In this document: in pieces, positions 1-14,106 of the stretch
Numbering within the stretch: the first letter of the stretch is position 1
How the letters are laid out: every line of letters starts with the position of its first letter
Source of the DNA: Acidimicrobiia bacterium
GTDB lineage: Bacteria > Actinomycetota > Acidimicrobiia > Spongiisociales > UBA5794
NCBI GenBank assembly: GCA_030066755.1
Contig: JASJAX010000043.1
Coordinates: forward strand, 1 to 59,402
Reading direction: 5' to 3'
Length of the DNA: 59,402 nt
The notes under the pieces: model-generated
What the model saw: only the letters and a program-made list of their open reading frames with translations
Databases searched by the model: none
Told to the model about the DNA's origin: nothing
Program-made: the position numbers and the translations under genes

Positions 1-1
1 C

Positions 2-952
2 CCTCCGACCGACGCCCGGATCCTGCGAATGCTCTCCGGGACGAACCGGGCACCCGACGAGGTGATCGGCGACGTGCCGCCCAACCTGGCTCCGATCACC
101 GTCGAAAAGGTCGCCGTCAACGCCGTGCTGGCCGGATGCACGCCGGAGTACATGCCCGTGGTTCTCACTGCCCTCGAAGCGGCGCTCGATCCGATGTTCA
201 CGATGCACGGTCTGTTGTGCACGACCTGCTTCTCGTCCCCGATCGTCATCGTGAACGGGCCGGTTGCGCAGGAGATTGGGATGAACTCGGGCATGAATGC
301 GCTCGGACAGGGCAACCGTGCCAACGCCACGATCGGGCGAGCCCTGCAACTCATCGTCCGCAACGTCGGGGGAGGAATCCCCGGAGACCTCGATCGCGCC
401 ACACTCGGCGGACCCGGGAAGTACACGTTCTGCTTCGCAGAGGACGAAAGCGACCCCGACTGGACGCCGCTGTCCGTTGCCCGCGGGTTGGAGCCGGGCA
501 CGAGTGCAGTGACGCTGTTCCAGGGTGACGGCATCCAAGGTGTCATCGATCAACGTTCTCGATCCGCAGAGGAGCTCACCCGCTCACTTGCGATGGCGCT
601 CTTGGCCGTGGGCCACCCGAAGCTGGCGGAGTTCACCAATGCGATGCTCGTGCTCTCGCCCGAGCACTACCGGGTGTTTGCCTCGGAAGGCTGGGATCGG
701 GCGCGGATCGAACAAGCACTCCACGCCGAGCTCCTCCGACCCGGACGAGATCTCGTTCAGGGCGCCCATGGGGTTGGGGAGGGCATCGACCCGTCACGTG
801 TCGATGAGACCGTGCCGAAGTTCTGGCCTGATGGGTTGCTGATCGTCCGAGCCGGCGGTTCGGCCGGGATGTACTCGGCGATCTGTGCAGGTTGGACCGG
901 AGGGCGATTCCGTCATGAATCGCAGCCAGTGACCAAGGAGGTCACCGTATGA
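2..952 (+). CDS. Conserved protein of the family found next to UGSC (seleno)proteins; 5' end lies outside the window
   Basis: Frame is open from base 2 (PPTDARILRML...). Motifs TVEKVAVNAVLAGC, GNRANATIGRAL and GKYTFCFAE. Stop overlaps the next ATG (ATGA at 949-952). Confidence 0.75.
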   Translation, partial: PPTDARILRMLSGTNRAPDEVIGDVPPNLAPITVEKVAVNAVLAGCTPEYMPVVLTALEAALDPMFTMHGLLCTTCFSSPIVIVNGPVAQEIGMNSGMNALGQGNRANATIGRALQLIVRNVGGGIPGDLDRATLGGPGKYTFCFAEDESDPDWTPLSVARGLEPGTSAVTLFQGDGIQGVIDQRSRSAEELTRSLAMALLAVGHPKLAEFTNAMLVLSPEHYRVFASEGWDRARIEQALHAELLRPGRDLVQGAHGVGEGIDPSRVDETVPKFWPDGLLIVRAGGSAGMYSAICAGWTGGRFRHESQPVTKEVTV

Positions 953-1467
953 GCAACGAGCCGCTGCGGGATCCGACCGCGGAGACATCGGGTCTTCGAC
1001 GACCCCGGCAAGAACGTCTGCCATCGCTCGACGGGCGGTCGATTGCACTCCTCGATATCGGCAAGATGCGAGGCGACGAGTTTGTTGCCCGTCTCGAGCA
1101 ACTCTTCGCCGGGTCCGGGTTCGCGACCCGGACCTATCGGAAGCCCACCAACGCCCGTGTCGCACCCGTCGAGTTGCTCCAGCAGATTGCCCGGGAGAAT
1201 CACGCCGTCGTACTGGCACTCTCGGATTGAGGATCGTGCACGTCGTGCAGTTCGCACGACCTTCGCCAACTTGATGATCGCGGGCTCGTCGGCGTGAACG
1301 TCATCACCACGGAGTTCGTGGTTGCGTTCGAGTCGCAATGCGACGCACTCGGCTACGACGGCGCAGCCGTCGTTGTGCCGCATCCCATCCAGAATCGGCA
1401 GACGGCGGAGATCGCAGCTCTCGCCGACGAGGCGTTTCCCGCGATCATCGCTGCGCTCGCCGATTGA
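949..1467 (+). CDS. UGSC-family selenoprotein, 172 aa with Sec at TGA 1228-1230
   Basis: The ORF track stops at ...VLALSD, but the frame continues GSCTSCSSHDLRQLDDRGLVGVNVITTEF...VPHPIQNR...AALAD to TGA 1465-1467, giving D-U-G-S-C. A SECIS-like hairpin follows the UGA. Confidence 0.9.
1242..1260 (+). promoter_or_regulatory. Bacterial SECIS element
   Basis: Perfect 7-bp stem GTCGTGC/GCACGAC with loop AGTTC (G at loop position 2), starting 11 nt after the in-frame TGA. Confidence 0.8.
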
Positions 1468-1477
1468 GTTCCGAGAG

Positions 1478-2428
1478 ATGGGAGCGTCGTATTCTGGTTT
1501 GGTGCCGTTCAGCGAAGAACCTCTGACCAACGAGAACCTCGATGAGGTGATCGCGTTCTTTCGGGCCTCCAACCCGTTTGCCCAGCGAACCTGGGGTTGG
1601 GACACGGGACGCTTCATGGATTGGCGGTGGGGATCGAACATCCACTCGGAGCGGGAAACACCGGGTTGGTTCTCGACCCAGTGCCGGGTGCTCCGCAACG
1701 GCAGGGAGATCGTCGCAGTGGCGCTCGCCGAGACGGGGCGAGGAGATGTGTGCGTCATCACGCCGGCGGAGGCTCCCAGCCTCGTGCGCGAAGTGATCGA
1801 ATGGCTGCCCGCCTCGCCGTTGGCAGCCCCCGGCAATCCGATCCGGCTCGAGAGCAGCAAGTCCGCTGAGTGGCTCCGCAGCGTGCTCACCGGTGCCGGC
1901 GCGGTCGAGGAACCGAATACCGGAGTCGAGTGGGAGTACGACCTCGAGGCCGTGTCGACCGACGTTTCGGTCCCCGACGGGTTCCGTATCGAGTCACTGG
2001 CCGCTGGCGATGCCGTAGGTCGCAGCGCGATCAGTGATTGCATCCGGGCGGCCTTCGGGACGGACCACGACGTCTCGCCAACGCTCGAGAGCATCGAATC
2101 GAACCCGATGTATCGGCCGGAACTGAGCGTGTATGCCAAGGCGCCAGACGGCACCGTTGCCGCGTATTGCCGGGGCACCGCAGATTCGGAGAACGGCGTG
2201 TGCGGCATCGATCCGGTGTGTACGCACCCGGACTACGGGCGGTTGGGGCTTGCCAAAGCGGTGGTGCGCACCTGCTTCGCGACACAACGTCGCCTCGGCG
2301 GCCGCTTCTCCTTCATCGGATCGGCACCGGAGCCGGAGCCGTCCACCTTCCTGTATCGCTCGCTCGGTCCGAGTCGGGCGCAACCGGGTTCTACCTGGAC
2401 GCTCCCGGCTACCCTCACGGCTCCATGA
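1478..2428 (+). CDS. GNAT-family N-acetyltransferase
   Basis: C-terminal acetyl-CoA motif IDPVCTHPDYGRLGLAKAVV and LYRSLG. Start is ATG 1478 or GTG 1502. Confidence 0.75.
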   Translation: MGASYSGLVPFSEEPLTNENLDEVIAFFRASNPFAQRTWGWDTGRFMDWRWGSNIHSERETPGWFSTQCRVLRNGREIVAVALAETGRGDVCVITPAEAPSLVREVIEWLPASPLAAPGNPIRLESSKSAEWLRSVLTGAGAVEEPNTGVEWEYDLEAVSTDVSVPDGFRIESLAAGDAVGRSAISDCIRAAFGTDHDVSPTLESIESNPMYRPELSVYAKAPDGTVAAYCRGTADSENGVCGIDPVCTHPDYGRLGLAKAVVRTCFATQRRLGGRFSFIGSAPEPEPSTFLYRSLGPSRAQPGSTWTLPATLTAP

Positions 2429-3777
2429 CCCCACCTCCCAACGGCCCCACCGTCTGGCTCACGACGCTTGGGTGCTCGAAGAACCAGGTCGATTCCGACA
2501 AGGTGACCGCCATGCTCGACGGCGCCGGATACGCCGCCGCCGCAACGGCCGAGGACGCCGATGTCGTGATGGTCAACACCTGTGCGTTCATCGAGGCAGC
2601 GCGGCAGGAGAGTATCGACACGATCCTCGAGGCGGCGGAGACGAAGCGTGAGGATGCCCGCCTCGTGGTGCTCGGCTGTATGGCCCAGCGCTACGAGACG
2701 GAGTTGGTCGAAGCGTTGCCCGAAGCCGACGCTGTGATCGGCCTCGATCGTTACACCGAGCTCGTCGACCGCCTCGACACGATGACAAACTGGCAGCCGA
2801 TCCGGATCCGGCCCGCTCCGACGTCGCACATGGACATCCTCTACCAAGTGAAGCGGCCGACGCCGTCCACCCCGTTCGCCTACGTGAAGGTCGCCGAAGG
2901 GTGCGACAAGCCGTGCACGTTCTGCGCAATCCCGCTGTTTCGCGGGAAGCAGCGGTCCCGCTCACCGGTGAACATCCGGGAAGAGATCGCCTCGTTGACC
3001 GAGGCCGGAGTCGGGGAGATCGTGCTCGTTGCACAGGACCTCGCTGCCTACGGACGAGACATCGGCGCCCCATCGGATGGCACAACCCCGGGAATCGTGG
3101 ACCTGCTGCGATTCGTGACCGATGTCGACGGCCTCCGGCGGCTGCGTCTCTACTACCTCTACCCCCGTGAGATCCGCCCCGCCTTGATCGAAGAGATGGC
3201 CGGCAATCCGCGCATTGCCGACTACTTCGATCTCTCGCTCCAACACGCCTCGGCGCCACTGCTGCGCGCGATGAAGCGGCCGGGGTCCGGCTCGAAGCAT
3301 CTCGAGCTGATCGAGCGGATCCGTGACGCCGCCCCGCAGGCGACGCTCCGTTCGAGCTTCATCGTCGGCTTCCCAGGTGAGACCGACGCCGATGTCGAGC
3401 AGCTCGCCGAGTTCCTCGACGCGGCCCAACTCGACTGGGCGGGGTTCTTCCCGTTCTCGCCCGAGGAGGGCACGCCCGCAGCCGAATTCGAGGCCCAGGT
3501 GCCGGAGCCGGAGAAGCAGGAACGTCTCCGCTATCTGCACAGCATCCAGGAAGACATCACCACCTCGCGGAACCTGGCGCAACGCGGCCGGATCCTCGAC
3601 GTGCTCGTCGACCAGGTCGAATCCGACCAGCCGGTCGGGCGAAGCTACCGGGAGGCGCCTGAGATCGACGGTGTGATTCTGCTCGACCGCGGAGCGCCCG
3701 GGCAGTGGGTGCGGGCGGAAATCACCGGCGGCTACGGCACCGACCTCGTCGGGGAAGTCGTCGGAGGCGCAGCGTGA
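2425..3777 (+). CDS. rimO: Ribosomal protein S12 methylthiotransferase
   Basis: TLGCSKNQVDS, VNTCAFIEAARQES, radical-SAM motif EGCDKPCTFC, C-terminal TRAM region with APEIDG. ATGA overlap with the upstream gene. Confidence 0.95.
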   Translation: MTPPPNGPTVWLTTLGCSKNQVDSDKVTAMLDGAGYAAAATAEDADVVMVNTCAFIEAARQESIDTILEAAETKREDARLVVLGCMAQRYETELVEALPEADAVIGLDRYTELVDRLDTMTNWQPIRIRPAPTSHMDILYQVKRPTPSTPFAYVKVAEGCDKPCTFCAIPLFRGKQRSRSPVNIREEIASLTEAGVGEIVLVAQDLAAYGRDIGAPSDGTTPGIVDLLRFVTDVDGLRRLRLYYLYPREIRPALIEEMAGNPRIADYFDLSLQHASAPLLRAMKRPGSGSKHLELIERIRDAAPQATLRSSFIVGFPGETDADVEQLAEFLDAAQLDWAGFFPFSPEEGTPAAEFEAQVPEPEKQERLRYLHSIQEDITTSRNLAQRGRILDVLVDQVESDQPVGRSYREAPEIDGVILLDRGAPGQWVRAEITGGYGTDLVGEVVGGAA

Positions 3778-5075
3778 TCGTCGAAACGCTTGCGGTCGGC
3801 ACCGAGCTGTTACTCGGCCAGATCGTCAACACCAACGCGACGGAGATCGCCGTTCGGCTGGCCGATGCCGGGCTCGACCACCATCACCAATCGGTGGTCG
3901 GCGACAACGTCGATCGCCTGGCCGAGGCCATCCAGACGGCGCTCGGGCGTGCCGATGCGGTGATCATCACCGGCGGCATTGGACCGACGCAGGACGACCT
4001 GACCCGTGATGCCATCTGTGCGGCTGCCGGGGTGTCGATGGCGTACGACGACGAATATGCCGACCATCTCCGCGCCTGGTGGTCGCGCCGCGGACGGGAG
4101 ATGCCCTCGTCGAACCTCAAGCAGGCCGAATACCCGGACGGTGCCGAGCGGATACCGAACCGGAAGGGGACGGCTCCGGGTCTGGCGCTCTCGACCGACT
4201 CGGGGTGGATCTTCGCGGTGCCCGGGGTACCGGCCGAGATGCTGCCGATGATCGACGGCCACATCATTCCGCTCCTGCAGCGCGAGGCCGGCGGCGACGA
4301 CGCAGTCGTCGTCAGTCGGCTGCTCCGCACCTGGGGCGAGTCGGAGTCCCGGGTCGGGGAGCTCTTCGCCGATCTGTTCGAGACGTCAACGAATCCGACC
4401 GTTGCATTCCTTGCTTCCGCCGGCGAGATCAAGATCCGGCTGACGGCCAAGGCTGCAACGGACGACGAAGCGCGCGCGCTGATCGCGCCCGTCGAAGCCG
4501 AGGTGCGACGCCGAATGGGAGCCAAGGTCTTCGGTGCCGATGACGAAACCATCGAGCACGTCGTATTGCGTCGACTGGAGGAGTTGGGCTGGACCCTCGG
4601 TACTGCGGAGTCGGCGACCGGAGGACTCATCTCGGCGAGGATCACCGCGGTCCCGGGCGCTTCGACCGTGTTTCGAGGTGGCATCGTCGCCTATGCCACC
4701 GACATCAAACACGGCGTCCTCGGTGTCGCCGACCACCTGATCGAGGAGCACGGCGTCGTCAGCGAGGAAGTGGCCTGTGTCATGGCGTCTCATGCCGCCG
4801 ACGTCCTCGGCGCCGATGTCGTCATCTCGGTCACTGGGTCGGCCGGGCCCGACCCACAGGAGCGCACGGCAGGGACGATGATCGTCGGCGTTCACACGCC
4901 CGATCAGGTGCTGGCCAAGACCTTGTTCATGCCGGGAGATCGTGAACGAGTTCGGGCCTACACCACGACAGCAGCGCTCCATCTGGCTCGACTGGCGCTC
5001 ACCGGGGTGTGGTGGGGAGGCTCGAAGGACGAGGCCTCCGGGCTCGACCGCTGGATGCGGCCGGGCGGCTCATGA
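3774..5075 (+). CDS. cinA: Competence/damage-inducible protein CinA (MoCF domain plus NMN deamidase)
   Basis: AVGTELLLGQIVNTN, GGIGPTQDDLT, PGVPAEM, TAESATGG. GTG start overlaps the rimO stop. Confidence 0.95.
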   Translation: MIVETLAVGTELLLGQIVNTNATEIAVRLADAGLDHHHQSVVGDNVDRLAEAIQTALGRADAVIITGGIGPTQDDLTRDAICAAAGVSMAYDDEYADHLRAWWSRRGREMPSSNLKQAEYPDGAERIPNRKGTAPGLALSTDSGWIFAVPGVPAEMLPMIDGHIIPLLQREAGGDDAVVVSRLLRTWGESESRVGELFADLFETSTNPTVAFLASAGEIKIRLTAKAATDDEARALIAPVEAEVRRRMGAKVFGADDETIEHVVLRRLEELGWTLGTAESATGGLISARITAVPGASTVFRGGIVAYATDIKHGVLGVADHLIEEHGVVSEEVACVMASHAADVLGADVVISVTGSAGPDPQERTAGTMIVGVHTPDQVLAKTLFMPGDRERVRAYTTTAALHLARLALTGVWWGGSKDEASGLDRWMRPGGS

Positions 5076-5632
5076 CGGCCGGCGACCGTCGGCGACTGTT
5101 CCTGGCGGTTGGACTCGATGCGTCGACACGGTCGGTGCTCGCAGCCCACCTCGAAGCTCAGGGTGCCGCTGCGTGGCCGGATCGACTGGTGGTTCCCGAC
5201 AACTGGCACGTGACCCTGAGGTTTCTCGGATGGACCGATGGTGTCCAGCGAGACCGCGTCATGCACTCGCTCGCCGATGCGGACCTCCCGGCGGCGTTCC
5301 GTATTCGGTTTGGGTCCTTGGGAGCGTTCCCCAAACCCCGCCGGGCGACGGTGACGTGGGTCGGCGTCGAATCGGGCACAGCCGAACTCTCCCGGCTCGC
5401 CGACGCCGCAGAGCACGCTGCGCAGACGGTCGGTTTCGCCCCGGAGGAGCGACCGTTTCACCCTCATCTCACGGTCGGTCGCGTCCGTCCACCGGTTGAC
5501 GTGACCCAGCGGCTCGACCGCTTCGAACCGTGCAACGTCGTCATGGTCGTCGACCGGATCACGCTCTTCGAGAGCCATCTCGAGCGCGGCGGAGCGCGGT
5601 ACGAACGCCTCGATGAGATCGTGCTGAGCTGA
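5072..5632 (+). CDS. thpR: RNA 2',3'-cyclic phosphodiesterase (2H phosphoesterase)
   Basis: RLFLAV and two HxT motifs (WHVTLRFLG, FHPHLTVGR); usual position after cinA. Confidence 0.92.
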   Translation: MTAGDRRRLFLAVGLDASTRSVLAAHLEAQGAAAWPDRLVVPDNWHVTLRFLGWTDGVQRDRVMHSLADADLPAAFRIRFGSLGAFPKPRRATVTWVGVESGTAELSRLADAAEHAAQTVGFAPEERPFHPHLTVGRVRPPVDVTQRLDRFEPCNVVMVVDRITLFESHLERGGARYERLDEIVLS

Positions 5633-5635
5633 CGA

Positions 5636-6058
5636 TCAGATCAGCGTCGTCCAGCCGTCGTCCCAATCCTCGTGCTCCGGGGCATGCTTGCGGATCGCGC
5701 GGCTGCAATCGATACAGATCCGCGTGTCCGGGAGCGCCCGCAGCCGCACCAGCGGGATTGCGTCTCCGCACGTGGCGCACTCTCCGTACGTGCCGTCCGC
5801 AATCCGTTCCAGCGCTGCGGTCGTCGAGGCCAAGGCTCGGCGTGCCTGCGCCAGAAGGAGCCGGTCGGTGCCGAGGTCGGCGTCGTCGACGGACGACTCG
5901 TCGAGCAAATCGCTGCAATCGCGGTGTTCGGCTGCATCGGTGAGCTCGAGTTGTAAGGACTCGAGGCATCGACAGATGGCATCCCGTCGGGCCATCAGTT
6001 GAGCGGACAGGCGGTCGAGGGTCCTCTCAGAGAACCGTGTATGCAGTGTCCCAACCAT
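5636..6058 (-). CDS. TraR/DksA C4 zinc-finger protein
   Basis: ALERIADGTYGECATCGDAIPLVRLRALPDTRICIDC. GGGGGT lies before ATG 6058. Confidence 0.85.
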   Translation of the reverse strand: MVGTLHTRFSERTLDRLSAQLMARRDAICRCLESLQLELTDAAEHRDCSDLLDESSVDDADLGTDRLLLAQARRALASTTAALERIADGTYGECATCGDAIPLVRLRALPDTRICIDCSRAIRKHAPEHEDWDDGWTTLI

Positions 6059-6205
6059 CGCTACCCCCGTTCGACGTGGACATGGTCTCGACGAGGGGTT
6101 GTTCCCGCAGCCCAAGCGGGTCATCCCGTGTGTGGAATTTGTGCCACATCCTGGGCGAACCCGCTAGGGGCAGGGGACCCGATGATTTGGGACGTCGCTG
6201 TCGCG

Positions 6206-12720: not shown

Positions 12721-14106
12721 ATGACTGAGACGATCCTGCTCGGGATGCCGAAGCGCAAGCCGGAGCGTGCGCCGAGTCGCACGGGCCGGAGCTTCTTCGT
12801 GCGTACGTATGGCTGTCAGATGAACGACCACGACTCCGAACGCATCGCTGGACTCCTGGCCTCGGACGGCATGGTCGCCGCCGAGCGGCCCGAGGACGCC
12901 GATGTCGTCGTCCTCAACACGTGCACGATCCGGGAGAATGCCGACCAGCGTCTGTACGGCTACCTCGGTGCACTGAAACGAGCCAAACAGCAGCGACCCG
13001 ACATGCAGATCATGGTCGGGGGATGTATGGCACAGAAGGACCGGGGCACGATCCAAGAACGGGCGGAATGGGTCGACGTGGTGTTCGGCACGCACAACAC
13101 CCACCGCGTGCTCGAGCTTCTCGATCATGCCGAAGAATGGGGTCCGGTCACCGAGATCTGGGAAGAGACGACGTCCATCGAAGACATCCCGTCGACGTTG
13201 CCGAGCCATCGAGAATCGGAACACTCGGCATGGGTGACCATCACGATCGGCTGCAACAACTCCTGTACCTTCTGCATCGTCCCCATCGTCCGCGGCGCCG
13301 AGATCAGCCGTCGGCCCGGAGACGTGATCGACGAGGTTCGGCGTCTCGTAGCCGACGGCGTGGCCGAGGTGACTCTTCTCGGCCAGAACGTGAACTCCTA
13401 CGGCCGCGACCTCGACTTGAACGGGCGCAAGCCACTCTTCGCCGACCTGTTGCGCAGAGTCGGCGAGGTCGAAGGGATCCGCCGCATTCGCTATACGAGC
13501 CCACACCCCAAGGACCTCCGCGAGGACGTGGCGATTGCGATGGCTGAGACACCGGCGGTCTGCGAACAGCTTCACCTTCCGCTCCAGTCCGGCAGCGCCC
13601 GGATCCTCTCGGCGATGCATCGGGGCTACAACGGGGAGCGCTTCCTCGAGAAGCTCGCCATGGCACGATCCATCATTCCGGATCTCGCGGTCTCCACCGA
13701 CGTCATCGTCGGCTTTCCGGGAGAAACCGAACAGGACTTCCAGGCGACGCTCGACGTCGTCGAGGAGTCCCGGTTCGACAGCGCATTCATGTTCCAGTTC
13801 TCGCCGCGGCCGGGTACCCCCGCAGCGGAGATGGGGGACCGGGTCCCGGCGGAGGTGATCCAGGAGCGATTCGATCGCCTGGTCGAGCTCCAGAACCGCA
13901 TCACTCTCGAACGCAACCAGGAGATGGTCGGGCAGCGCTACGAGATCATGGTGGAGGGCCCATCAAAACGTGATCCGTCGCTGATCACCGGTCGTACTCG
14001 CGGGAACAAGCTCGTCCACGTTCCCGGGTCCTGGGAGCCGGGAACCTTCTTCGACGCGGAGATCGTGCGGGCGGCACCTCACCATTTGATCGGGAGCCTT
14101 GTCTGA
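12721..14106 (+). CDS. miaB: tRNA-i6A37 methylthiotransferase
   Basis: TYGCQMNDHDSE, LNTCTIRENA, GCNNSCTFCIVP, YTSPHP, TRAM domain. Confidence 0.97.
   Translation: MTETILLGMPKRKPERAPSRTGRSFFVRTYGCQMNDHDSERIAGLLASDGMVAAERPEDADVVVLNTCTIRENADQRLYGYLGALKRAKQQRPDMQIMVGGCMAQKDRGTIQERAEWVDVVFGTHNTHRVLELLDHAEEWGPVTEIWEETTSIEDIPSTLPSHRESEHSAWVTITIGCNNSCTFCIVPIVRGAEISRRPGDVIDEVRRLVADGVAEVTLLGQNVNSYGRDLDLNGRKPLFADLLRRVGEVEGIRRIRYTSPHPKDLREDVAIAMAETPAVCEQLHLPLQSGSARILSAMHRGYNGERFLEKLAMARSIIPDLAVSTDVIVGFPGETEQDFQATLDVVEESRFDSAFMFQFSPRPGTPAAEMGDRVPAEVIQERFDRLVELQNRITLERNQEMVGQRYEIMVEGPSKRDPSLITGRTRGNKLVHVPGSWEPGTFFDAEIVRAAPHHLIGSLV

Follow-up and report, generated by a model that had tools for sequence, protein, structure and literature searches.

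A UGSC-family selenoprotein gene and its fixed upstream partner in an Acidimicrobiia genome: a likely thioredoxin-driven two-part selenoenzyme

The start of the stretch of DNA analysed here (59,402 nucleotides, contig JASJAX010000043.1 of assembly GCA_030066755.1; hereafter the window) carries a predicted selenoprotein gene that ordinary gene calling cuts in two. Judged by comparison with its homologues, 949-1467 forms a single gene that encodes a UGSC-family selenoprotein of 172 residues, not a 93-codon gene, and the predicted protein is a new member of a known, uncharacterised family. The same kind of comparison shows the UGSC gene and the gene directly upstream to be a fixed, translationally coupled pair, which likely functions as a thioredoxin-driven two-part selenoenzyme; the redox chemistry proposed for the family is putative. 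Taken as a whole, the material is probably best explained by a UGSC selenoprotein that acts with its fixed partner as one thioredoxin-driven enzyme, whose mechanism we infer below.

The UGSC gene, its family and the Sec machinery

The following features are referred to throughout.

2..952, + strand: partner gene, 3' part, 316 codons; 5' end lost at the contig start, stop codon TGA at 950-952
935..941, + strand: strong Shine-Dalgarno sequence AAGGAGG, 7 nt before the ATG at 949 and within the 3' end of the partner gene
949..1467, + strand: predicted UGSC-family selenoprotein gene, 172 codons, with PF24696 and NF041046 profile matches
1228..1230, + strand: putative Sec codon UGA, giving U94 of the motif D-U-G-S-C-T-S-C
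1242..1260, + strand: putative SECIS hairpin GUCGUGC-AGUUC-GCACGAC, in the codons for T98-S-C-S-S-H-D104; kept in Sec forms
1478..2428, + strand: GNAT-domain gene (PF00583, 26.4 bits); context only, not part of the module
2425..3777, + strand: rimO (TIGR01125, 419.9 bits); context only
3774..5075, + strand: cinA (NF001813, 420.3 bits); context only
5072..5632, + strand: thpR, RNA 2',3'-cyclic phosphodiesterase (TIGR02258, 128.6 bits); context only

Ordinary ORF calling yields a 93-aa ORF at 949..1230 and a separate 57-aa ORF at 1294-1467. When TGA 1228 is read as U, the frame is open from ATG 949 to TGA 1465-1467, the true stop, and the product has 172 residues. A preliminary description had carried the 93-aa ORF in frame through this TGA to a 172-aa UGSC-family selenoprotein with a D-U-G-S-C-T-S-C motif; every coordinate was found to be correct, and the motif is present with U94, C97 and C100. 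The surrounding sequence is LALSD-U94-G-S-C97-T-S-C100-S-S-H-D, and the stretch across residue 94 reads LALSD-U-GSCTSCSSHDLR. The family assignment also holds, as the Pfam family PF24696 matches on both sides of the TGA, covering residues 7-170 of 172 at 111.6 bits (cut-off 25). The NCBIfam model NF041046 scores 112.7 bits with U scored as C, under its equivalog cut-off of 125 bits, which is a naming threshold and not a structural feature. A whole-genome profile search returned a single UGSC copy (103.9 bits, one TGA inside). The TGA and the hairpin recur without listed differences in the covering contigs of four runs from two studies, one of which may be the source sample.

Alignment of homologues and a search for the Sec machinery had been proposed as checks on the preliminary description. 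The alignment showed Sec or Cys at the column of residue 94 in genes that are neither split nor ended at the TGA. Among 74 loci this column holds TGA in 6 and TGC or TGT in 68, a count in which one scan pattern favoured Cys, and in related genomes all six UGSC matches (in 5 of 41 genomes) contain one in-frame TGA. The U/C-G-S-C column is invariant in 16/16 and 32/32 aligned sequences, and 517 homologues of similar length and about 60% identity were found with C at the U94 column. Three homologues of 58-60% identity (P0045, P0073 and P0080) bear the NCBI name 'UGSC family (seleno)protein'. In the main clade U94, C97, C100, H103 and D104 vary little or not at all; UxxC alone is universal, because C100 and D104 are lost in forms fused to the partner (UxxCAPEVSGH) and in the form of one related genome, G016 (UGTCSSRSVRD).

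The predicted protein thus resembles the 'UGSC-containing protein' (PF24696/NF041046) of Zhang and Gladyshev (2008; PMC2398784) in its full-length profile match and in the motif at the same column. Shared with that family are also a length of about 170-180 aa, the alternation of Sec and Cys forms and the tie to a domain called 'Unknown_1'. Its host is an Acidimicrobiales-like actinobacterium, unlike the hosts of most named relatives found here, which are proteobacterial. PMC2398784 places UGSC among thiol oxidoreductases, and a 2026 review (PMC13188914) lists it among proteins whose functions are largely uncharacterised. Natural Cys forms occur in cultured, harmless strains of Methylobacterium, Bradyrhizobium, Rhodoplanes, Elioraea, Sphingosinicella and Xanthobacter, which opens UGSC and its partner to ordinary genetics and biochemistry.

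The search for the Sec machinery found selA, selB, selD and tRNA-Sec in the same genome, all over their cut-offs: selD at 406.6 bits, itself with Sec in the motif GAGUACK; selA at 409.6 bits, with selB adjoining it; and tRNA-Sec at 70.4 bits, called tRNA-SeC with anticodon tca by ARAGORN. The preliminary description had regarded Sec use as patchy in Actinobacteria. This does not apply to the present lineage, where 38 of the order's 41 genomes carry a selA that exceeds its cut-off; UGSC, by contrast, is patchy, occurring in 5/41. The genome also encodes true members of the GrdB/PrdB families, a GrdB-family selenoprotein and a PrdB-like protein, and these two together with SelD make at least three further hidden selenoproteins. 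Since standard gene calling truncates the UGSC gene at 93 codons and at least three more selenoproteins are hidden, the selenoproteomes of such genomes appear to be under-called, and the full-length UGSC form amounts to an annotation fix.

The partner gene

The preliminary description had placed UGSC at the head of a gene run. The run is instead headed by the partner gene, which is cut by the contig start. Its missing 5' part was not found on other contigs of the genome; longer public contigs (records 1 and 9) extend past the window start. The gene at 2..952 has no Pfam or NCBIfam match and encodes a Pfam-less 'Unknown_1'/GWTDGLP-type domain of about 340 residues. Its identity is 81% with the complete partner (475 aa) in the closest relative (locus L026) and 53% with that in locus L020, and a partner-family profile scores it at 453 bits as the only copy in the genome. 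A Cys in the motif NAVMAGC is near-invariant. Most partners carry an N-terminal thioredoxin-fold domain with CxTC, some have no thioredoxin domain altogether, and that of the closest relative has CETS in place of CxxC; because the N-terminus of the window's partner is missing, its own thioredoxin domain is assumed from relatives. Genes resembling thioredoxin reductase lie nearby in 9 of 76 loci.

The preliminary description had proposed this Cys-containing upstream gene as the redox partner of UGSC; that it is a partner now has strong support. In 73 of 74 UGSC loci, spread over Pseudomonadota, Bacteroidota, Acidobacteriota and Actinomycetota, it stands immediately before UGSC on the same strand. 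In the window ATG 949 overlaps the partner's TGA stop as ATGA (949-952), and a 4-nt stop/start overlap of this kind is found in 30 of 64 parsed partner-UGSC pairs. The two are fused as UGSC-partner in loci L021 and L023 and in GOS reads (supplement file 3 of PMC2398784), that paper itself describing 'Unknown_1' fused to UGSC, and as partner-UGSC in P0272. Of the 41 genomes searched, the partner was found in G000, G004 (with two copies), G016 and G033, each of which has UGSC at matching copy number, so that the two agree in occurrence and copy number in four of the five UGSC-bearing genomes. For the UGSC variant of the fifth, G023, no partner was detected; there the UGSC gene stands at a contig start in a genome of 56% completeness. 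The pairing gives an uncharacterised family a testable working context.

It may be asked whether UGSC acts instead as a free-standing selenol/thiol oxidoreductase, either an antioxidant or a thioredoxin-like carrier, with the upstream gene merely co-regulated or one client among others. A UxxC pair where a helix begins is a classic layout of redox proteins, the thiol oxidoreductase grouping in PMC2398784 points the same way, the G023 variant stands without a detected partner, and the partner family is large, with 5783 clusters at 50% identity. Such a free-standing role is nevertheless unlikely, given the partner's upstream position in all but one of the 74 loci, the fusions in both orders, the one-to-one copy numbers in related genomes that hold both genes and the overlapping stop and start codons. 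The N-terminal tail of UGSC argues in the same direction, its residues D8-P9-T10 being conserved (P9 in 32/32 sequences) and modelled at low confidence (pLDDT 63-67), as expected of a docking segment.

Fold, distant relatives and proposed chemistry

The structure model of UGSC (pLDDT 92.8) predicts a flavodoxin-like (beta-alpha)5 fold, with U94 between strand 86-92 and helix 95-110, whereas PMC2398784 suggested a thioredoxin-like one. A fold search singled out no specific relative, its matches being an undifferentiated set of generic flavodoxin, TIR and CheY-like folds, and the sequence profile found no match among PDB chains at E up to 10. Like the thioredoxin-fold UxxC/CxxU selenoproteins (Trx-like, Prx-like, DsbA-like and SelW-like), UGSC would place its redox pair at a helix N-terminus, and it shares with them abundant Cys homologues and an aquatic-microbe habitat (PMC2398784). 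It would differ from them in its predicted (beta-alpha)5 fold, in having the thioredoxin fold on the partner and in its one fixed partner. When the partner model was searched, matches to its thioredoxin domain (residues 1-95) took up the VIA lists, and an ESM Atlas look-up of the partner domain gave only unnamed clusters of the same kind. Class I fumarate hydratase, the best match of the large domain, was considered as its relative and set aside, the Foldseek rows being weak (7xky_A, E 2.4e-3, TM 0.24/0.35), so that no convincing structural relative emerged for this domain.

Profile comparison suggests a remote kinship between UGSC and the Sec-bearing segment of GrdB/PrdB. Among 32 UGSC members, weak matches were obtained to GrdF in 26, GrdB in 25 and TIGR01918 in 18 (best E 9.2e-6), every one of them falling at about positions 316-401 of the profile. 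In an hhalign comparison U94 falls opposite the Sec of the genome's own GrdB-family selenoprotein (75 columns, E 3.3e-4, probability 38%). As in selenoprotein B (GrdB/GrdF/GrdH; TIGR01917, TIGR01918) and PrdB (TIGR04483), the Sec of UGSC lies in U-x-x-C at a strand end and helix start; about 75-80 residues can be aligned with Sec in register, and a (V/I)PHP motif is shared. UGSC is unlike GrdB in that the N-terminal part of about 330 residues is missing and the scores are far under the family cut-offs: selenoprotein B profiles give 14-17 bits (14.4-16.7) against cut-offs of 600-800 (602-800), and Pfam GRDB has no match at E up to 0.1 in any of the 32 members.

In the Grd/Prd systems, protein B works with a second, substrate-binding polypeptide and is reduced by a dithiol or the thioredoxin system, and the Sec of GrdB/PrdB acts as a nucleophile. 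The UGSC partner differs in having no detectable similarity to GrdE/GrdG/PrdA: hhalign gave a probability of 0.06% against the genome's GrdE/GrdG-like protein, a single-sequence template of limited sensitivity, and under 1% against the N-terminal part of its GrdB-family protein. Unlike in Grd/Prd, no sign of a pyruvoyl group was seen in UGSC or its partner. Most of the UGSC hosts in this analysis are aerobic bacteria of water and soil.

The proposed mechanism is as follows. The UGSC and partner proteins would form one enzyme, in which the large partner domain binds the substrate, with the NAVMAGC Cys and Arg, Asn, Glu and His residues as candidate active-site residues. UGSC would supply the reactive selenol from U94 at the helix start of its modelled (beta-alpha)5 domain. 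After each turnover U94-C97 would close to a selenenylsulfide, possibly relayed to C100, and the fused thioredoxin domain would re-reduce the U94-C97 bond, with thioredoxin reductase and NADPH as the ultimate source.

A different chemistry for the same motif would have U-x-x-C-x-x-C-x-x-H-D bind a metal or iron-sulfur cluster with no selenenylsulfide cycle, making UGSC an electron-transfer or metal-delivery subunit of its partner. The spacing resembles that of cluster-binding motifs, the five residues U94, C97, C100, H103 and D104 are (nearly) invariant in the main clade, the predicted fold is flavodoxin-like, and the weak fold matches of the partner are to an iron-sulfur enzyme, class I fumarate hydratase. 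Metal binding appears somewhat less probable still than a free-standing UGSC, as C100 and D104 are absent in the fused and G016 forms, the thioredoxin fusion points to dithiol/selenol chemistry, and the Sec of the related GrdB/PrdB proteins is a nucleophile.

For the thioredoxin-driven enzyme, the idea of a two-subunit reductase draws on three features: the fixed pairing with an uncatalogued domain, the fused thioredoxin domain and a Sec segment of GrdB type. We offer tentatively, as a possibility that goes well beyond the pairing itself, that UGSC and its partner are a widespread thioredoxin-driven selenoenzyme in which a Sec module from GrdB/PrdB was joined to a new substrate-binding domain, and that its substrate, which recurrent neighbours may import or sense, is perhaps a small organic or amino acid derivative. 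Genes that recur near UGSC in 76 loci encode a GntR/FCD regulator (28 loci), a TctC receptor (14), an SDF symporter (6), a BKACE enzyme (5) and a 3-hydroxyacyl-CoA dehydrogenase-like protein (5). If the proposal is true, the pair would represent reductive C-X bond cleavage in mostly aerobic aquatic and soil bacteria.

The hairpin after the UGA and the downstream genes

The preliminary description had reported a perfect 7-bp hairpin starting 11 nt after the UGA with a G near the loop start, and had likened it to bacterial SECIS elements. The hairpin was confirmed at 1242-1260: seven perfect pairs begin 11 nt past the UGA and enclose the loop AGUUC, in which G is the second base. Taken singly, the sequence does not stand out: the 66-nt fold around the hairpin has z = +0.84, with 161 of 200 shuffles folding as well or better, and the single-sequence z-score was dropped as SECIS evidence. 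A scan of 1100-1400 against Rfam at E up to 10 found no SECIS family and two chance snoRNA rows. Since the single-sequence fold is no better than chance, the significance of the hairpin comes from the comparison of homologues.

In that comparison the likeness to SECIS geometry stands. Pairing in the helix reaches 93.8% across ten Sec forms, which show one compensatory pair and five changes from G-C to G-U. GU at the loop start combined with six or more of the 8 pairs is found in 10/10 Sec forms and in 1/64 Cys forms (Fisher 1.5e-11, a value that overstates independence because the Sec and Cys forms are phylogenetically related groups). The mean local hairpin energy is -10.97 kcal/mol in Sec forms versus -3.85 kcal/mol in Cys forms. 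The codon of S101 is AGU in all ten Sec forms vs one of the 64 Cys forms, and residue 102 is T in every Cys form (64/64) and S, L or V in Sec forms; residues 101-102 offer, through the codon comparison, a clean natural case of an RNA signal that constrains a protein. In the fused forms L021 and L023 the hairpin at this distance from the UGA differs in sequence and carries GUC in its loop. In where it lies and how it is built, the window's hairpin matches a bacterial SECIS, and it is a putative SelB site. Like SECIS elements of the E. coli fdhF type, it is contained in the coding region, begins 11 nt past the UGA and shows G/U where the apical loop opens, 18 nt after the UGA; it is unlike that type in its short stem of 7-8 pairs and its lack of a bulged U.

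From the Sec/Cys column of the family, the SECIS-form hairpin and the presence of selA, selB, selD and tRNA-Sec, we infer that SelB and Sec-tRNA read UGA 1228 as selenocysteine. The reverse reading, that TGA 1228 is an ordinary stop separating 93-aa and 57-aa ORFs (the latter at 1294-1467) or lying in a decayed gene, with the hairpin a by-product of GC-rich codons, could appeal to the shuffled folds, to the empty Rfam scan and to standard ORF calling, which gives precisely these two ORFs. It is nonetheless very improbable: a single Pfam domain covers both ORFs; frame, motif and TGA are kept in 6/6 matches of relatives and in 6 loci of other phyla; the TGA is kept in independent contigs; the codon choice of Sec forms, not that of Cys forms, maintains the hairpin and its GU loop; and the genome has the full Sec machinery, with selD itself Sec-encoded.

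Downstream, the preliminary description had seen the genes run on almost without gaps into GNAT, rimO, cinA and thpR. The packing is as described: the GNAT start follows the UGSC stop by 10 nt, and the later junctions are overlaps (GNAT/rimO ATGA 2425-2428, rimO/cinA GTGA 3774-3777, cinA/thpR ATGA 5072-5075). A scan of 1-6200 gave no promoter-like site and no terminator-like site on the + strand, and two terminator-like sites at chance level, both on the minus strand. These four genes are probably co-transcribed with UGSC in this organism. Co-transcription implies no shared function here, because at the other 75 of the 76 loci examined none of the four is a neighbour of UGSC, and a functional link of UGSC to rimO, cinA or thpR was rejected on that ground. 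That the six genes form one unit with UGSC and its partner in the service of RimO, CinA or ThpR, perhaps donating sulfur, selenium or electrons to the methylthiotransferase, is accordingly hard to credit despite the single strand, the 4-nt overlaps or 10-nt gap at every junction and the terminator-free + strand, as rimO-cinA-thpR are housekeeping genes, and downstream of UGSC the closest relative, L026, has different genes and L020 an acetate kinase-like gene.

The UGSC gene and its reading frame

The gene at 949-1467 adds a member to a known family of selenoproteins, UGSC, and has a well-supported partner gene directly upstream. It lies on contig C147 of a 3.79-Mb genome assembly (211 contigs, 91.7% complete), which contains a single UGSC copy. 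As the preliminary description had it, the 93-aa ORF was found to stay open in frame past TGA 1228 to yield 172 residues, and a 7-bp hairpin begins 11 nt past the UGA.

Features of the UGSC gene
935-941, plus strand: Shine-Dalgarno-like AAGGAGG, preceding ATG 949
949..1230, plus strand: short ORF, 93 aa
949-1467, plus strand: read-through frame of 172 residues, from ATG 949 through TGA 1228-1230 (as U) to the stop TGA 1465-1467
1242-1260, plus strand: hairpin GUCGUGC/AGUUC/GCACGAC, starting 11 nt after the UGA

The start codon overlaps the stop of the upstream gene (ATGA), and the product reads AVVLALSD-U-GSC-TSC-SSHD across the Sec codon. Pfam UGSC (PF24696) matches residues 7-170 with 111.6 bits, indicating that one domain covers both sides of the TGA; the NCBIfam model NF041046, 'UGSC family (seleno)protein', scores 112.7 bits, short of the 125 bits required for naming. 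Among 5.8 billion proteins searched, 517 homologues of comparable length turned up; the best are 62-69% identical, and three carry that NCBI name. The aligned homologues have C at the Sec column within an invariant D-C-G-S-C-x-S-C-S-x-H-D. In a scan that took a single genome for each species, which gave 74 loci and in which one of the two search patterns favoured Cys forms, this column was TGA in six (Burkholderiales, two; Acidimicrobiales, Actinomycetota, Rhodospirillales and an alphaproteobacterial locus, one each) and TGC or TGT in 68. The predicted structure is a (beta-alpha)5 sandwich (pLDDT 92.8, pTM 0.86) with generic fold matches, a conserved N-terminal tail modelled at low confidence, and U94 placed between strand 86-92 and helix 95-110. 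The earlier view of UGSC as a named but functionally uncharacterised family agrees with the bioinformatic listings that were all that was found in full-text literature outside subscription journals, and with a passage of a 2026 review (PMC13188914) placing it among selenoproteins whose functions 'remain largely uncharacterized'.

The recoding signal and selenocysteine machinery

Taken by itself the hairpin is unremarkable: z is +0.84 for the 66-nt fold, with at least equal stability in 161 of 200 shuffles. The peptide T-S-C-S-x-H-D is kept in both Sec and Cys forms, and synonymous sites therefore reveal what the RNA needs. Ten Sec forms (the window, the six scan loci and three relatives) were compared with 64 Cys forms, leaving out two fused forms, because of an insertion, and four unparsed Cys loci. 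At least six of eight pairs in register together with GU at the loop start were observed in 10/10 Sec forms but 1/64 Cys forms, and the codon AGU for S101 in the same proportions (10/10 and 1/64); the Fisher value of 1.5e-11 is overstated because the forms are related to one another. The Sec forms span several phyla. Residue 102 is T in all 64 Cys forms, and S, L or V (xUG or UCG) in Sec forms. Local hairpin energy averages -10.97 kcal/mol in Sec versus -3.85 kcal/mol in Cys forms, and mean energy over 57 nt is -19.9 (11 Sec forms, GC 0.64) versus -13.4 (66 Cys forms, GC 0.61). Helix pairing among Sec forms is 93.8%; one change, U-A to C-G, is compensatory, and five others turn G-C into G-U. 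The fused forms have a hairpin of unrelated sequence at equal distance, also with GU in the loop. To the extent that sequence allows, a SECIS at 1242-1260 is established. No difference is listed at 1228-1260 in the contigs that span it; these come from four runs in two studies, of which one may represent the source sample. In run X1, a contig from a different organism of the same sample matches the window solely from TGA 1228 onward, its upstream part ending ...GALAD; it has the appearance of a further UGSC selenoprotein gene with a common TGA and SECIS stretch.

A search of the window's genome for selA, selB, selD and tRNA-Sec found all four. selA scores 409.6 bits and adjoins selB; the tRNA scores 70.4 bits and is called tRNA-SeC (anticodon tca) by ARAGORN; selD scores 406.6 bits and has one in-frame TGA.

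Sec-encoded selD
L001 (G000:C136:7480-11406), about 1501-2440, minus strand: in-frame TGA in the catalytic GAGUACK

Sec use had been described as patchy, which does not hold here: of 41 genomes from the order, 38 have selA above cut-off, making Sec use the rule in this lineage. UGSC was found in only five of the 41, with one in-frame TGA in each of the six matches. These tallies, and that of the partner below, include the unpublished genomes G027 and G038, which have selA and lack UGSC and partner.

Downstream, GNAT, rimO, cinA and thpR follow after a 10-nt gap and with three 4-nt overlaps, the near-gapless run described earlier, and this spacing makes co-transcription with UGSC likely in this organism. 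At the other loci none of the four is again a neighbour of UGSC, and the genes that follow it differ in the closest relatives. Elsewhere in the window, ARAGORN calls a 95-nt tRNA-Ala (tgc) at 13368-13462 (minus strand), about 20 nt above the usual length, which may reflect an insertion or an over-extended call.

The upstream partner gene

The partner, truncated by the contig start (2..952), has no Pfam or NCBIfam match, and a fold search with its model gave no convincing relative for the large domain. Fuller copies are found in relatives. In L020 a 480-aa protein directly upstream of UGSC has an N-terminal thioredoxin-like part with CETC, and its C-terminal part shares 53% identity with the window fragment. 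The nearest named relative, L026, comes from an Acidimicrobiales MAG and has a UGSC 70% identical; its partner has 475 aa, is 81% identical to the fragment and overlaps the UGSC start with its stop. This L026 partner (2565-3992, plus strand) has the thioredoxin motif C-E-T-S, a single-Cys module, in contrast to the CxTC of 57 of 64 parsed partners.

The upstream gene had been proposed as a redox partner. The pairing stands: 73 of 74 loci (all but L094) have a partner match immediately before UGSC in the same orientation, and fusions occur in both orders, whereas the redox role is one that we infer. Among the 64 pairs parsed out of 76, stop and start overlap by 4 nt in 30, most others being 2-20 nt apart. 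The domains are fused with UGSC first in the related genome G004, and with the partner domain first in P0272; the called P0272 protein ends ...AIGD at the Sec codon position, so gene callers evidently truncate such fusions too. GOS reads (supplement file 3, PMC2398784) have UGSC fused to ...NGWTDGLPIVPPT...NGVMAGCRPEYMP..., which identifies the partner as the 'Unknown_1' domain mentioned in that 2008 paper. In the 41 genomes the partner profile matches G000 (the window's genome), G004 (twice), G016 and G033, all UGSC holders with equal copy numbers of both; the exception is G023 (56% complete), with UGSC at a contig start and the partner undetected. That UGSC (L019, G023:C75, 52-585, plus strand) is a variant, G-D-U-A-A-C-T-A-C-S-L-H-D, which scores 144.7 bits with Pfam UGSC, above the window protein, and is followed by an FAD-dependent oxidoreductase-like ORF.

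At 50% identity the partner family comprises 5783 clusters (E up to 1e-3) or 1430 (1e-30), and many members are about 350 aa without the thioredoxin part. Conserved features are GWTDGLPxxPPT, NAVMAGC, NGP, GxGxRANxTxGRA, a Glu, a His and AGGxxG. Literature outside subscription journals yielded no report of this almost constant adjacency, of the fused thioredoxin domain or of a GrdB link.

Likeness to GrdB and a proposed mechanism

When 32 UGSC members were compared with profiles, GrdF matched 26, GrdB 25, GrdH 23 and TIGR01918 18, weakly (best E 9.2e-6) and always near profile positions 316-401; Pfam GRDB matched none. The genome has its own relatives of these enzymes.

GrdB- and PrdB-related genes
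L098 (G000:C154:48361-52401), about 1237-2544, minus strand: GrdB-family selenoprotein
L098, about 2547-3830, minus strand: GrdE/GrdG-like gene
L099 (G000:C186:25698-28946), about 1252-2193, minus strand: PrdB-like gene, 234-codon ORF up to the TGA

The GrdB-family protein (436 aa, in-frame TGA, ...VTST-U-GTGTRC..., TIGR01918 468 bits) and the GrdE/GrdG-like gene directly upstream (NF040793, 316 bits) both fall under the specific sarcosine, betaine and glycine cut-offs. The PrdB-like frame continues past its TGA (...LLLVPV-U-PVCHVSVGH...GIPTVSV...THPMGRP) and is probably a further missed selenoprotein. By hhalign, the UGSC profile aligns with the GrdB-family protein over 75 columns (E 3.3e-4, probability 38%), with the Sec residues in register and a common (V/I)PHP motif. 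The partner shows no resemblance to GrdE-like or GrdB N-terminal parts. From this weak, Sec-centred likeness and the unlike partner, UGSC resembles protein B's Sec module, here joined to another kind of large subunit.

UGSC and its partner would form one enzyme, for which the chemistry of Grd and Prd enzymes offers a model by analogy. The large domain of the partner would bind the substrate, U94 would act as nucleophile or reductant, U94-C97 would close to a selenenylsulfide, and the fused thioredoxin domain, fed by TrxR, would re-reduce it. In the flanks of the pair (L024-L097, out of 76 loci), TrxR-like genes occur in nine loci and GntR/FCD regulators, divergently upstream, in 28; TctC is present in 14 and AraC in seven. 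An SDF symporter lies directly upstream in six, BKACE 3 nt upstream in five (Bacteroidota), and 3HCDH_N (3-hydroxyacyl-CoA dehydrogenase-like) and a TonB receptor occur in five each. These recurrent neighbours are possible pointers to the substrate.
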